Virus record (IMG/VR): IMGVR_UViG_2565956721_000004
Span: 1-31,930 of that record
DNA: 31,930 bases
Origin: a virus
Taxonomy: Duplodnaviria > Heunggongvirae > Uroviricota > Caudoviricetes
Reading direction: 5' to 3' (one strand)
In this document: piece after piece, positions 2,650 to 12,247 of the stretch
How the letters are laid out: each line of letters begins with the position of its first letter
Numbering within the stretch: the stretch's first letter is position 1
The notes under the pieces: model-generated
The model's database searches: none
What the model was told of the DNA's origin: nothing
The model's input: the letters and a program-made list of their open reading frames with translations, nothing else
Program-made: the position numbers and the translations under genes

Positions 2650-3720
2650 ATGGCTAACGCCTGGCTCAGATTATGGCATGACATGCCAAATGACCCTAAG
2701 TGGCGAACAATTGCCAGGGTGTCAGGGCAGCCAATTGCAACAGTGATGGCAGTGTATATCCACCTCCTGGTGAGCGCGTCACGAAATGTCACGCGAGGTC
2801 ACATTGATGTCACGACAGAAGATTTGGCAAGTGCGCTCGACGTGACAGAAGAGGTAATTGATTCAATTTTGCAGACGATGCAGGGGCGGGTACTTGATGG
2901 TGATTTAATCACTGGATGGGAAAAACGCCAGGTGCTGAAAGAGGACAACGGCAATATTTCGCAAACCGCAAAATCTCCTGCAGAGCGCAAGAGGGCGCAG
3001 CGAGAGAGGGAAAAAATGCGGGAACAAAATGGCGATTGTCACGGCGCGTCACGAAATGTCACGCACATGTCACGACAAGTCACGACAGATAAAGATACAG
3101 ATAGAGATACAGATAAAGAAGATCAAAACACTATGGTCCATGGCGTAAAAAACGCCACGAACCATGTAGGGGATGTTCAGACCGTCACTCCTGGCCAGCC
3201 CGCAGGCACGACACCGGAAGCCGATTCAGCGTATGCGCTGAAAGCCGATTCGGGCGCTGTGCAGCAGGCGATGACCGCAGGGCCGGAGCAATCACACCAA
3301 CTGCAGCAGCCTGAAGCCGATTCCGCCATTCAGCGGGAAGCCGATCGGGTAGTCCCGGAAAACACCGGGCAGCCTGTGGGACGAGTGGATTATCCGGATG
3401 TGTTCGAACAGGTCTGGCGGGAATACCCGTTACGAGCCGGGGCAAACCCGAAGAAATCCGCTTTCAGTGCCTGGAAGGCCAGATTACGCGAGGGGGTGCC
3501 ACCAGAGGCCATGCTGGATGGTGTGAGGCGTTACACAAGATACCTAGCTGCTACCGGGAAAACGGGAACGGAATTTGTTCAGCGAGCGACGACGTTTTTT
3601 GGACCGGACCGGAATTTTGAAAACCCCTGGTTGCTCCCGGTAAGCGGCACGAACAACCAGCGTTGTGTTAATCATATTTCTGAACCGGACACCGAAATTC
3701 CGCCGGGATTCAGAGGGTAA
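2650..3720 (+). CDS. Phage replication initiator / replisome organizer (YdaU/DUF1376-like N-terminus) carrying internal origin iterons
   Basis: ATG at 2650 with AGAAGAGG RBS (track starts at GTG 2644). N-terminus AWLRLWHDMPNDPKWRTIA resembles replisome-organizer N-domains. Position after cro/ydaT is typical. Contains the iteron clusters listed below. Confidence 0.6.
   Translation: MANAWLRLWHDMPNDPKWRTIARVSGQPIATVMAVYIHLLVSASRNVTRGHIDVTTEDLASALDVTEEVIDSILQTMQGRVLDGDLITGWEKRQVLKEDNGNISQTAKSPAERKRAQREREKMREQNGDCHGASRNVTHMSRQVTTDKDTDRDTDKEDQNTMVHGVKNATNHVGDVQTVTPGQPAGTTPEADSAYALKADSGAVQQAMTAGPEQSHQLQQPEADSAIQREADRVVPENTGQPVGRVDYPDVFEQVWREYPLRAGANPKKSAFSAWKARLREGVPPEAMLDGVRRYTRYLAATGKTGTEFVQRATTFFGPDRNFENPWLLPVSGTNNQRCVNHISEPDTEIPPGFRG
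2774..2816. repeat. Iteron cluster 1: four GTCAC(G/A) repeats phased ~10-11 bp (2778, 2788, 2798, 2809)
   Basis: Read directly. The 21-mer GCGCGTCACGAAATGTCACGC (2774-2794) recurs identically at 3044-3064. Confidence 0.6.
3038..3125. repeat. Iteron cluster 2: five GTCACG repeats phased 10-11 bp (3038, 3048, 3058, 3069, 3079) followed by GATA-rich A/T stretch (3088-3125); candidate phage origin of replication
   Basis: Read directly. The architecture (helically phased iterons plus adjacent A/T-rich DNA inside the initiator gene) mirrors lambda ori inside gene O. Confidence 0.6.
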
Positions 3721-3757: not shown

Positions 3758-4174
3758 GTGGCAAAAGTTTTTACTCCCGAACTGCGGGAAGAAGTGAAGG
3801 CGCGCATTGTGGAACTGGTACGCAGAGATGGGCGAAAAACGCGTAAACAACTGGAAAATGAAACCGGGGCGACGAGACACCTGATAGAAGTTCTGGTGAA
3901 AGAGCTGGTAGTTAGTGGCGCAGTATATGGTTCAGGACATGGAATATTTCCTTCGGAGCAGGCTCGTAAGGACTGGGGAAAAGCCCGCAAAAAAATGTCG
4001 AGAGCGGCAGTGAAAAAGAAGAGCGACCCTGACCTGATTTATTCATTGCTAGATGGCGAAATACGCCGTTACAACAGACGACAGAATATAATTTGTCGCG
4101 AGTGTCGTCAGAGCGAAGTTATGCAGCGCATACTGGAATTTTATCAGGGAAATGTTCGGTATTTATTGAAGTGA
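3758..4174 (+). CDS. Hypothetical basic protein (possible replication/regulatory accessory)
   Basis: GTG start with strong AGGAGG RBS (3748-3753); 138 aa, Lys/Arg-rich; no recognisable catalytic motif. Confidence 0.5.
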   Translation: MAKVFTPELREEVKARIVELVRRDGRKTRKQLENETGATRHLIEVLVKELVVSGAVYGSGHGIFPSEQARKDWGKARKKMSRAAVKKKSDPDLIYSLLDGEIRRYNRRQNIICRECRQSEVMQRILEFYQGNVRYLLK

Positions 4175-9811: not shown

Positions 9812-10177
9812 ATGACTGAACGCATAGAATTTGTTTTGCCTTACCCGCCGACGGTGAATACCTACTGGCGACGTCATGGCAATACGTATTTCATCTCGGA
9901 AGCCGGAAAGCGTTATCGCCGTGATGTGGCGCTAATTGTTCGCCAGCAGCGGCTGAAATTAAGCCTGTCCGGAAGGCTGGCGATAAAGATTATTGCAGAG
10001 CCACCGGATAAGCGCCGCCGCGACCTGGACAATATCCTGAAGGCACCACTGGATGCGCTTACGCATGCCGGACTACTTATAGACGACGAGCAGTTTGATG
10101 AAATCAATATTGTGCGCGGTCAGCTCGTTCCTGGTGGGCGGCTGGGGATAAAAATCACAGAACTGGAGTGCGCATGA
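9812..10177 (+). CDS. rusA: Holliday-junction resolvase RusA
   Basis: 121 aa; the conserved RRRDLDN...KA..DALT.AG...DD motif block matches RusA. Confidence 0.85.
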   Translation: MTERIEFVLPYPPTVNTYWRRHGNTYFISEAGKRYRRDVALIVRQQRLKLSLSGRLAIKIIAEPPDKRRRDLDNILKAPLDALTHAGLLIDDEQFDEINIVRGQLVPGGRLGIKITELECA

Positions 10178-10863
10178 ATAACCAGTATTTACAGTTTGTG
10201 CGTGAGCAGCTCATTATCGCCACCGCTGATTTGAGTGGGGCAACAAAAGGTCAGCTTGAAGCCTGGCAAGAGAATGCCATGTTCGATACAGGGCGTTACA
10301 GGCGAAAAAAAATCCGGTACCGCGATGAAGTGACTGGAAAAATGATAACGCGGGATAATCCACCAATCCCGGGAAAGCAATCGCTGGCGAAGGGGACGTC
10401 AATTCCTCTGGTCAGTCCGGTTGAGTTTTCGACATCATCGTGGCGGCGGGCTGTTCTGTCTCTTGAAGAACATCATAAAGCCTGGTTGTTGTGGTGTTAC
10501 AGCGGGAGTATTTGTTGGGAATATCAGATCGCGATAACACAGTGGGCGTGGAATGAATTTAATACTCAATCCGGTACCAGAAAAATTGCAGGGAAAACGC
10601 AGGAACGCCTGAAAAAATTAATCTGGCTGGCGGCGCAGGCAGTAAAAGCAGAACTTTTTGGTGGGGAAGGTTATGAATACCAGGAGCTGGCATTACTGGC
10701 GGGAGTGACAACTAAAAACTGGTCCAAAACATTTACTCGTCACTGGGTTGCAATGAAACACATTTTTCACCGACTGGATAGTGAGGCTTTATTGTTTGTA
10801 ATGAGAACACGTTCAAAACAAAAGGCGGCATTTTCAAAGCAAAGTGTTGCAAAAGTAGATTGA
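10174..10863 (+). CDS. Putative late-gene antiterminator (Q-like), assigned mainly by position
   Basis: ATG 10174 overlaps rusA stop (ATGA) with GGAG RBS; it is the last gene before the PR'/tR'-like promoter-terminator pair, tRNAs and lysis genes. No motif-level confirmation. Confidence 0.45.
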   Translation: MNNQYLQFVREQLIIATADLSGATKGQLEAWQENAMFDTGRYRRKKIRYRDEVTGKMITRDNPPIPGKQSLAKGTSIPLVSPVEFSTSSWRRAVLSLEEHHKAWLLWCYSGSICWEYQIAITQWAWNEFNTQSGTRKIAGKTQERLKKLIWLAAQAVKAELFGGEGYEYQELALLAGVTTKNWSKTFTRHWVAMKHIFHRLDSEALLFVMRTRSKQKAAFSKQSVAKVD

Positions 10864-10875
10864 AAGGCATATATT
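10847..10875 (+). promoter_or_regulatory. PR'-like late promoter: -35 TTGCAA, 17-bp spacer, -10 TATATT
   Basis: Near-consensus sigma70 promoter overlapping the 3' end of the Q-like gene, about 55 nt upstream of an intrinsic terminator. Confidence 0.45.
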
Positions 10876-10930
10876 TCATGCAAATCTGATATTTTGCCGA
10901 TTTTGTACGTGATGGCAAAAGCAAACAAAA

Positions 10931-10953
10931 CCCGCCCACAAGCGGGTTTTTTT
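10931..10953 (+). terminator. tR'-like intrinsic terminator (CCCGC-CCACAA-GCGGG + T7)
   Basis: Read directly; A-run upstream and U-run downstream could make it bidirectional. Confidence 0.6.
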
Positions 10954-11035
10954 ATGCCACTTATCTCGGATAGACATGGTGAATGCGCTGGTGGAGGAAG
11001 TAAGGGTGATTTTTAACCAGGTGATTTTTGAATGC

Positions 11036-11064
11036 TTGCAACATTGATTTCGTAACGTTATTAT
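11036..11064 (+). promoter_or_regulatory. tRNA-cluster promoter: -35 TTGCAA, 17-bp spacer, -10 TATTAT
   Basis: Read directly; ends about 10 nt before the first tRNA. Confidence 0.5.
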
Positions 11065-11073
11065 CCTGCGCCC

Positions 11074-11149
11074 GGCCCTTTAGCTCAGTGGTGAGAGCGA
11101 GCGACTCATAATCGCCAGGTCGCTGGTTCAAATCCAGCAAGGGCCACCA
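11074..11149 (+). tRNA. tRNA-Ile2 (anticodon CAU, ileX-like; formally could decode Met)
   Basis: Cloverleaf folded by hand: acceptor GGCCCTT/AAGGGCC, anticodon loop CTCATAA, T-loop TTCAAAT, 3' CCA; close to E. coli ileX as recalled. Confidence 0.8.
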
Positions 11150-11150
11150 A

Positions 11151-11227
11151 CCGCCACTAGCTCATCAGGAAAGAGCGTCAACCCTTTAAGTTGAGTGTGC
11201 GAGGTTCGAGTCCCCGGTGGCGGTCCA
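11151..11227 (+). tRNA. Atypical tRNA-like gene, anticodon UUU (Lys) with C at position 33 and 5'-CC start
   Basis: Hand fold: acceptor CCGCCAC/GTGGCGG, U8, D-loop with GG, anticodon stem TCAAC/GTTGA with loop CCTTTAA, T-loop TTCGAGT (one A-C mismatch in T-stem), CCA end. It is only 1-2 nt from its neighbours. Confidence 0.5.
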
Positions 11228-11229
11228 GT

Positions 11230-11305
<76 letters not shown>

Positions 11306-11308
11306 TAT

Positions 11309-11383
<75 letters not shown>

Positions 11384-11676
11384 GTTAGAGTCTTTCAGTC
11401 TGCGATGATGGGAAATCCCGGAGTGACTGAAAGACGTTTAAGTTATGAATGATCGCTTTTTTTTTGCAAAATTGCTGTGCAGAAATACTAACCTTCGGGC
11501 AGGCGATCATTCATAAGCACTCTGCTTTTATTCCGATTAACTGTGAGTGGTTTGTTGGATAGAGTGCTTTCCTTACTGTATATATCGTTTCGCCCGCTTT
11601 TGCGGTTTTTTCTTTTCAAATCCCTTTCATTTCTCAGTGTAAAACTACGCCATCCGTTATTTGCGGAGGTGAGGCT

Positions 11677-11892
11677 ATGAAATCCATGGACAAAATTTCA
11701 ACGGGCATTGCCTACGGCACCTCCGCAGGCAGTGCTGGCTACTGGTTTTTACAGTGGCTTGATCAGGTCAGTCCGTCACAGTGGGCTGCGATTGGTGTAC
11801 TGGGGAGTCTGGTTCTGGGCTTCCTGACATATCTGACTAACCTGTATTTCAAAATCAGAGAGGACCGTCGTAAGGCTGCACGGGGAGAGTAA
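11677..11892 (+). CDS. Class II holin / pinholin (phage 21 S21-type, dual-start motif MKSMDK)
   Basis: 71 aa, two transmembrane segments, charged C-terminus; sequence matches S21 pinholin as recalled. Confidence 0.85.
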
Positions 11893-11896
11893 TTCA

Positions 11897-12247
11897 ATGA
11901 CTCAAAACTATGAACTGATTGTGAAAGGGATCCGCAATTTTGAGAATAAAGTTACGGTAACTTTAGCGTTACGGGACAAAAAACGCTTTGACGGTGAAAT
12001 TTTTGACCTGGACATCTCGCTGGACCGTGTTGAAGGTGCCGCGCTGGGGTTTTATGAGGCAGCAGCCAGAAGGAGCATCAGACAGGTCTTCCTGGATGTT
12101 GCTGCCGGGTTATGTGAAGGGGATGAGCAGTCGCCGGAAAAGCGCCCCGTAATTTTAGAGGCGCAGAATGTGTGGATAACCTACAAAGGAAAGCTACCAG
12201 GAAGAATTACTGGTTCTCTGAAGACTCCTCCGGAATCACAACCTTAA
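11897..12247 (+). CDS. YdfR-like protein (DUF1327-type) inserted between holin and endolysin
   Basis: 116-aa ORF between holin and lysozyme, the same position as ydfR in Qin (recalled). Confidence 0.5.
   Translation: MTQNYELIVKGIRNFENKVTVTLALRDKKRFDGEIFDLDISLDRVEGAALGFYEAAARRSIRQVFLDVAAGLCEGDEQSPEKRPVILEAQNVWITYKGKLPGRITGSLKTPPESQP

Follow-up and report, generated by a model that had tools for sequence, protein, structure and literature searches.

A conserved structured RNA module between the tRNA array and the lysis genes of a Qin-like prophage, a candidate tRNA-trailer small RNA

The window, i.e., the whole stretch of 31,930 nt analysed here, carries a Qin-like lambdoid prophage, and the tract under study (11384-11676) lies inside its Q-to-holin late leader. 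Upstream, a DUF968 gene and RusA are followed by the antiterminator gene Q (10168-10863) and then by a pR'-like promoter; downstream of the tract, the class II holin gene (from 11677) is succeeded by the YdfR, lysozyme, and spanin genes. The pR'-like promoter (TTGCAA-17-TATATT, 10847-10875) sits directly after Q and is followed by a strong terminator (AAAACCCGC..GCGGGTTTTTTT, 10927-10953). By analogy, the segment 10847-10958 would yield a short leader RNA like lambda 6S, StxS or IsrK; the Rfam families isrK and isrJ gave weak, sub-threshold scores in the upstream region (22.7 and 24.5 bits, respectively). A Chi sequence, GCTGGTGG, is located at 10986-10993 between tR' and the tRNA promoter, and copies of this octamer occupy a similar position in several loci whose surroundings have otherwise diverged.

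The tRNA array is preceded by a putative promoter of its own (Table 1), in which a GC-rich discriminator follows the -10 hexamer and which ends 9 nt before the first tRNA. The motif TTGCAx-17-TATTAT/TATCAT was found at an equal distance to the first tRNA in most arrays starting with tRNA-Met(CAU), and it recurs there although the flanking sequence is otherwise unrelated. We regard it as the predicted, conserved stable-RNA-type promoter of the tRNA operon. The four tRNAs scored 44-74 bits with the Rfam models; the one with the CAU anticodon is tRNA-Met or, according to the RefSeq annotation of an identical locus, tRNA-Ile2. The second tRNA (11151-11227) keeps the scaffold CCGCCACTAGCTCATC...GGTTCGAG...GGTGGCGG between prophages, with an anticodon loop that differs among them (e.g., loci L029, L050 and L062). 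The variants comprise Lys-UUU, Arg-UCU, Phe-AAA, Leu-UAA, and a "stop" UUA anticodon, as well as several loops of non-standard size that ARAGORN could not assign. This appears to be a hypervariable or decaying position of the array.

In the tract behind the array, the sequence-only reading had noticed two perfect inverted repeats, a T9 run, a small palindrome, and a weak hairpin, all of which were recovered in the same places. The arms of the 11-bp repeat, GTCTTTCAGTC (11390-11400) and GACTGAAAGAC (11425-11435), are 24 nt apart. Those of the 14-bp repeat, TTATGAATGATCGC (11443-11456) and GCGATCATTCATAA (11503-11516), are 46 nt apart and enclose the T9 run (11457-11465) and GCAAAATTGC (11466-11475). 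An additional inverted repeat, AAGCACTCT (11515-11523) / AGAGTGCTT (11561-11569), forms the base of a further hairpin, H3. The initial list of features was thus correct in what it contained, but it missed H3 and did not recognize all the hairpins as a single unit. When the tract was shuffled 1000 times with dinucleotide composition preserved, a perfect inverted repeat of at least 11 bp appeared in four shuffles, whereas one of at least 14 bp, or both repeats together, appeared in none. RNA folding, the check that had been proposed with the first list, gave -76 kcal/mol for the + strand RNA of 11384-11618 (z = -5.0), and none of 200 shuffles was as stable. Taken at the sequence level, H1, H2, H3, and T1 (Table 1) are best described as parts of one conserved + strand structured non-coding RNA module of ~230 nt.

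The ORFs inside the tract are only 31-45 aa long, and the earlier statement that it holds no ORF is right in substance. Differences in T-run length and indels among relatives were taken to disrupt any reading frame; a small protein-coding ORF was therefore rejected. A cmscan of 10700-12000 against Rfam 15 (E up to 10) returned no match overlapping the tract, the only matches being the four tRNAs and weak ones upstream of 11030. The tract carries no annotation in any listed record, including the identical locus of AR_0089.

Table 1. Features of the tRNA operon, the RNA module and its flanks in the window
Feature	Positions	Strand	Description and basis
Putative tRNA-operon promoter	11036..11064	+	Consensus scan: -35 TTGCAA, 17-nt spacer, -10 TATTAT
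Four-tRNA array (CAU, Lys-UUU, Thr-UGU, Gly-UCC)	11074..11383	+	ARAGORN, Rfam, RefSeq
Junction GUUAGA	11384..11389	+	Between the tRNA-Gly CCA end and H1
H1	11390..11435	+	11-bp stem, asymmetric internal loop, apical GGG/CCC stem
H2	11443..11516	+	Three-way-junction domain; RNAalifold and pair counts
H3	11516..11568	+	Long interrupted hairpin; inverted-repeat search, RNAalifold, folding
Core H2+H3, covariance-model extent	11438..11575	+	Model R1, 134.3 bits, E = 9e-29
T1	11594..11611	+	Terminator-like CCGC-UUUU-GCGG, then U6
Holin leader	11612..11676	+	Short, outside the conserved module; holin gene starts at 11677

The module begins 6 nt after the CCA end of tRNA-Gly, on the same strand as the tRNAs. 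The motif CCAGUUARAG is kept in most copies that bear H1, and the junction is a candidate RNase E-type cleavage point at which the trailer would be freed. H1 has a conserved asymmetric internal loop, UGCGAUGAU opposite GGAGU, and is optional in the family, being missing in five loci where H2 directly follows tRNA-Gly. The possibility that H1 is a degenerate 3' half of tRNA-Gly, raised because MAFFT had aligned the two regions, was not supported; 118 and 257 of 2000 shuffles attained the alignment score, and tRNA-Lys did as well as tRNA-Gly against H1.

Conservation within the family is highest in H2. Inside its 14-bp outer stem, the helix P2, UUUUUGCA (11461-11468) / UGCAGAAA (11478-11485), is formed by a U-run paired with a downstream A-run, so that the T9 run pairs with AAA inside H2; a small hairpin, P3 (CC-UUCG-GG), occupies 11492-11499. 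The apical loop of P2 is a 9-nt sequence, AAAUUGCUG (11469-11477), unpaired in the predicted fold and near-invariant, although part of this constancy, as with the H1 internal loop, comes from the collection scans, for which both motifs were obligatory. In H3, the basal stem pairs (A)GCACUCUG with CAGAGUGC(U), and the upper stem pairs UCCGAUUAAC with the strand GGUUUGUUGGA (11549-11559). On the 5' strand A is seen replaced by G, with the 3' strand fixed; the near-invariance of the latter is likewise partly built in, since it was required by the alignment filter. Matches recovered without a given motif showed just occasional single changes in that motif. One variant class in the collection retained H2 with a different third hairpin. 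The covariance model R1 of the core, built from 34 diverged homologues, found a single copy in the window.

The 3' end of the module is marked by T1, whose arms CCGC (11594-11597) and GCGG (11602-11605) form 4 bp (-6.6 kcal/mol) in front of a T6 run (11606-11611). The weak third hairpin of the sequence-only reading is this element, and it is terminator-like, if weakly so. According to the alignment, 11612-11676 is shared only by window-type copies, i.e., the carriers of this class II holin family.

Comparison of homologues strongly supported the predicted structure. The core alignment comprised 34 representatives with pairwise identity below 97%. In these copies, 97.6% of 1391 pair positions were paired, compared with 36-51% in slid controls in which the 3' partners were displaced by 1-3 columns. 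At nine pairs of the core both sides change in a compensatory manner. These include UA/AU, GC/UA, UA/CG, and GC/UA changes in H2, and the base of H3 has four covarying pairs (CG/UG/UA, UA/CG, UA/CG, and CG/UA). The observed covariation score was reached by none of 500 column shuffles, a control that ignores phylogeny. For H1 (25 sequences), 96.6% of pair positions were paired versus 36-59% after sliding, and four pairs were changed on both sides.

The same alignment discriminated between the strands. The core had 167 G-U positions and 14 A-C positions; the pairing of 97.6% on the + strand would be 86.6% on the - strand. This excess of G-U and the strand difference in pairing point to an RNA, with the sense of the tRNAs and the late operon, as the functional molecule.

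The tract was present in 536 of 5426 complete E. coli genomes, always on the chromosome and mostly with 95-99% identity, in up to five copies per genome by megablast and up to three by the more sensitive blastn. ExPEC ST131 and APEC lineages are among the carriers, and the E. coli AR_0089 chromosome has an identical tract. Copies of ~98% identity occur in the isolated phages phi467 and PhiR47_1 and in two vB_Eco phages, while HK639 has a copy of 76% identity in the leader between Q and the lysis genes and Salmonella phage Fels-1 a broken one. Pattern scans of IMG/VR yielded more than 130 loci past the homology filter, with 74 unique sequences. When a single genome of each species was scanned, the module turned up in Shigella flexneri, Citrobacter sedlakii, Enterobacter hormaechei, Yokenella regensburgei, and Phytobacter ursingii.

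Linkage to tRNAs was the prevailing arrangement. In 116 loci, the H2 loop is found ~20 nt or ~70-80 nt behind the end of tRNA-Gly(UCC); most of these loci have H1 in the space separating tRNA-Gly from H2, and in five H2 starts ~3 nt past CCA. A strict terminator was detected within ~60 nt of H3 in 47 of 71 unique downstream sequences, the remainder being mostly the window-type allele. T1 has a stem of 4 bp (-6.6 kcal/mol) in the window; relatives whose stems read GCCCGC/GCGGGC or CCUCGC/GCGAGG reach -13 to -13.7 kcal/mol. The window-type stem would be the decayed form of a 6-bp stem (-13.7 kcal/mol), and a discrete 3' end of the transcript is uncertain for this allele with its T1 of just 4 bp. 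Near-identical copies were seen to differ in the length of the H2 T-run (11457-11465) and in the terminator stem, GCGGGC/GCGGG/GCGG (11602-11611). The commonest E. coli allele is that of the window, with the weakest terminator. Altogether, the promoter motif, the tRNAs, the structured trailer, and the terminator look like a moron-like stable-RNA operon placed inside the late leader.

The interval between Q/pR' and the lysis genes is a known insertion zone for morons (cargo), and the sequence-only reading had rightly placed the tract in it. At all inspected loci that retain phage context, a Q-type gene precedes the module and a lysis cassette comes after it. It is followed by at least six unrelated holin families, at H3-to-holin distances of ~100-2400 nt, and is accompanied by unrelated Q families and variable downstream cargo; this association with changing partners suggests that the module behaves as a self-contained unit. 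The alignment of related prophages that had been put forward as a way to find cargo genes inserted between the repeats gave another picture, in which insert variability lay mostly downstream of the module and never between the arms of a repeat. The alternative offered at that time, i.e., the scar of an excised cassette, did not hold, because cargo varies mostly downstream and conservation of the module extends over phages of at least six genera and to the neighbourhood of at least six holin families. The module is most likely a small regulatory RNA and not the scar of a cargo gene.

Some copies depart from the common arrangement. In Fels-1 and locus L153, a small secreted-protein-like cargo ORF precedes H2 in place of the tRNA; in Fels-1 this ORF is found between H1 and H2, beside an apparent partial duplicate of the H2 5' arm. 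At loci L126, L134, L136, and L145, H2 is preceded by non-tRNA sequence. In HK639 the module stands behind degenerate tRNA fragments with no obvious promoter seen there, and the annotation of this phage gives four terminators in the leader, one of them directly after the module. Three STnc100 copies were observed in the Fels-1 leader (L176; 1902-2115, 2316-2438, and 3439-3657, with 138, 59, and 83 bits, respectively), interleaved with the broken module and the small cargo ORF STM0906.1n. An STnc100-like motif, CACCGGGAGGCACCCGGCAC, was noted by eye downstream of the HK639 copy (L001, ~3370-3400). The leaders of both phages give the impression of arrays of structured RNAs.

In lambdoid prophages, the interval between Q and the holin gene is well known to encode sRNAs, Hfq-bound ones among them. 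The prophage sRNAs of this niche include PasA, PasC, and PasD in EPEC, as well as STnc100; PasD is Hfq-associated, and PasB was reported inside a structural-gene operon. The EHEC moron site carries convergent anti-sRNAs of the AgvB class, and StxS, lambda 6S RNA, and LPR2 are further non-coding RNAs of the late leader. We compared the module with these RNAs and with candidates from outside the niche.

STnc100 (RF02076) and PasD1/PasD2 share with the module the location downstream of Q, the strand, and the general build, all being structured RNAs of ~170-220 nt ending in a terminator; the module differs in being linked to tRNAs. At E up to 10, Rfam gave no STnc100 match in the window. A blastn comparison (word size 7) of 10864-11680 with the PasD2/PasA, PasD1, and PasC loci of E2348/69 gave tract matches not above chance, and model R1 had no match at these loci. 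Identity with a Pas sRNA (PasA, PasC, PasD1/2) was therefore rejected for lack of sequence similarity and of an R1 match. PasA/PasC and the AgvB-class anti-sRNAs, like the module, lie between Q and holin, but their genes run against the late operon (for PasA, as read from the terminator orientation at L004, ~3920-3975), whereas the module is on the sense strand and shows no similarity to PasA/PasC. StxS, IsrK, and lambda 6S, for which trans roles have been demonstrated or proposed, are also non-coding RNAs of the late leader. Unlike the module, they are pR'-proximal and end at tR'; the module is located ~430 nt further downstream and is unrelated in sequence, and the window's own candidate for an RNA of that type lies upstream (~10847-10955).

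Two other identities were tried and rejected. The put RNA of HK022 and HK639, two adjacent cis-acting stem-loops just past the early promoter of phages without N, does not agree in position, the tract lying past Q, tR', and the tRNAs in the late leader. Mimicry of GcvB, suggested by a common 10-mer, GGTCTGCGAT, and UUUGCAA..UUG, gave an alignment score that was reached by 173-241 of 1000 shuffles.

The 3'ETS-leuZ RNA is the 3' external transcribed spacer of the E. coli glyW-cysT-leuZ tRNA operon. It lies directly 3' of the last tRNA, is made from a stable-RNA promoter, ends at an intrinsic terminator, and is a by-product of tRNA maturation. The module likewise stands immediately 3' of the last tRNA on the same strand, with a promoter and a terminator present as sequence motifs, and the start of H1 6 nt past the CCA of tRNA-Gly, an arrangement seen in 116 loci, is that expected of a 3'ETS-type RNA. 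The likeness is one of position, the 3'ETS-leuZ side of it being general background, and by this analogy 3'ETS-leuZ may be regarded as the nearest functional analogue. Unlike it, the module is much longer (~170-230 nt, three domains) and more structured, has no common sequence with it, and is phage-borne, inside a late leader read by Q-modified polymerase. Full-text searches found no paper containing strings of the tract sequence, and no description of the module was found in the literature on HK639 and on tRNA-spacer sRNAs. The module is a candidate for a non-coding RNA of the prophage late-leader and tRNA-trailer kind.

These observations raise the hypothesis that the module is a 3'ETS-type tRNA-trailer RNA, freed by tRNA processing and acting in trans, to which we assign a probability of about 0.5. 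In a lysogen, the stable-RNA-type sigma-70 promoter would drive synthesis of a single precursor containing the four tRNAs together with the trailer. The cut that matures the tRNA 3' end at CCA|GUUAGA would then release the trailer RNA, whose new 5' end would be shielded at once by H1, or by H2 in the copies without H1, and so could persist as a stable species. RNA polymerase without Q modification would stop at T1; during lytic growth, the Q-modified polymerase coming from pR' would pass it. The freed RNA may act as a trans regulatory sRNA or as a sponge via the P2 loop AAAUUGCUG and the strand GGUUUGUUGGA, and in this it would resemble 3'ETS-leuZ and the sRNAs of the niche, STnc100/PasD, StxS, lambda 6S, and LPR2. 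Among the features of sRNAs, the U6 tail is present and AAAUUGCUG is conserved and unpaired, but the candidate seed GGUUUGUUGGA is base-paired in the predicted H3, which counts against a trans role. The T1 of just 4 bp, the HK639 copy without an obvious promoter, and the broken copy in Fels-1 count against it as well. A search for complements of AAAUUGCUG and GGUUUGUUGGA, covering the window only, found nothing beyond the module itself.

The main rival is a cis-acting processing or stability element of the late transcript, which we consider possible though rather doubtful. The hairpins after the last tRNA could set the RNase E/RNase P cut, guard the pre-tRNA 3' ends from exonucleases, and serve after excision as a cap that protects the 5'-monophosphate of the cargo/lysis mRNA from 5'-end-dependent decay; alternatively, they could be an RNase III site. 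The distance of H1 from CCA (or of H2, in the copies without H1) agrees with such a role, as does the constant location of the module upstream of the lysis cassette on the same strand. The weakness of the window T1, past which transcripts may well run into the holin gene, and the retention of the module in HK639 despite degenerate tRNAs point the same way. However, a simple cap or protector needs just a stable stem, and what precedes the module in Fels-1 and L153 is a cargo ORF, not a tRNA. A cis role would account for position and leaves unexplained the near-invariant loop, the one-sidedly invariant strand of H3, the three-way junction, and the usual presence of a terminator. Another function in cis, that of a terminator or insulator block which would stop transcripts from the tRNA promoter or leaking past tR' and keep the lysis genes silent in the lysogen, is unlikely. 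T1 stands after H3, a second terminator is present in many relatives, and the terminators annotated in the HK639 leader fit as well; in lambdoid late control, the Q-modified polymerase reads through terminators. Nevertheless, a scan for terminators in 10700-12000 gave no + strand match at H1, H2 or H3. None of their 3' arms is followed by a U-run (after those of H1 and H2 come GUUUAAGU and GCACUCUG, respectively), so that T1 alone qualifies, weakly, and a covarying structure of ~170 nt with conserved loops is unnecessary for termination. The view that the repeats are processing or terminator structures of the tRNA transcript was accordingly right on the RNA level and on the tie to the tRNAs (6 nt past CCA, the same strand, compensatory changes, strand-specific G-U pairs), but wrong for H1 and H2 as terminators.

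It is equally improbable that the module represents, in place of a usual base-pairing sRNA, an unrecognised class of phage RNA made with the tRNAs and binding a specific protein or small molecule. Such an RNA might work together with the hypervariable tRNA of the array as a decoy or anti-defence RNA, or serve as a riboswitch-like sensor that adjusts how much transcription from the tRNA promoter leaks through the weak terminator to the lysis genes. Its recognition elements would be the three-way junction, the near-invariant apical loop, and the internal loop of H1 (GCGAUGA facing GUGA), which is strongly conserved and by eye resembles a box C/D K-turn; the variable anticodon loop of the neighbouring tRNA at array position 2 also speaks for this idea. 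Against it, no riboswitch or protein-binding family of Rfam matched at E up to 10, the perfect 14-bp outer stem of H2 seems too stable for switching, the linker to T1 is unconserved, and no alternative pairing of H3 or the linker with T1 was seen by inspection. The K-turn likeness of the H1 loop (11402-11428) is one noted by eye, and its geometry is non-canonical, with a 5-nt bulge and G-G in place of G-C. A feature acting as DNA, whether a scar left by cassette excision, a site of recombination or a palindrome bound by a protein, is very hard to reconcile with the data and is largely refuted by covariation. The known cargo insertion zone and the Fels-1 ORF between H1 and H2, beside the partial duplicate of the H2 5' arm, would be in accord with it. 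The covariation, however, preserves pairing, and the 167 G-U positions are C-A mismatches on the other strand, which implies selection on RNA rather than on a DNA palindrome. The diversity of adjoining holins and the mostly downstream insertion of cargo also oppose this explanation, and inspection of the alignments revealed no flanking direct repeats (the repeat search itself covered inverted repeats only).

About one in ten complete E. coli genomes and at least five other enterobacterial genera thus carry an unannotated RNA whose fold has strong evolutionary support, in the interval where Shiga toxin and other cargo is inserted and where several virulence-linked sRNAs reside. An RNA of this class was already to be expected in this prophage region by specialists. 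If it is freed from a tRNA precursor, the 3'ETS route of sRNA biogenesis would be extended to phages, and a growth-rate-coupled prophage regulator made in the lysogen would be added. Even a module acting only in cis would illustrate how a constitutive tRNA operon and a lethal lysis cassette are combined in these phages.

Two minor observations concern the genes downstream. A 10-bp perfect inverted repeat, TGCGGAGGTG (11662-11671) / CACCTCCGCA (11718-11727), would pair the Shine-Dalgarno region of the holin gene with holin codons ~14-17 and might sequester its ribosome-binding site. The gene of the YdfR family after holin is frameshifted in AR_0089 according to RefSeq (L002, 4514-4865); the corresponding ORF of the window (11897-12247) is uninterrupted and encodes 116 aa.
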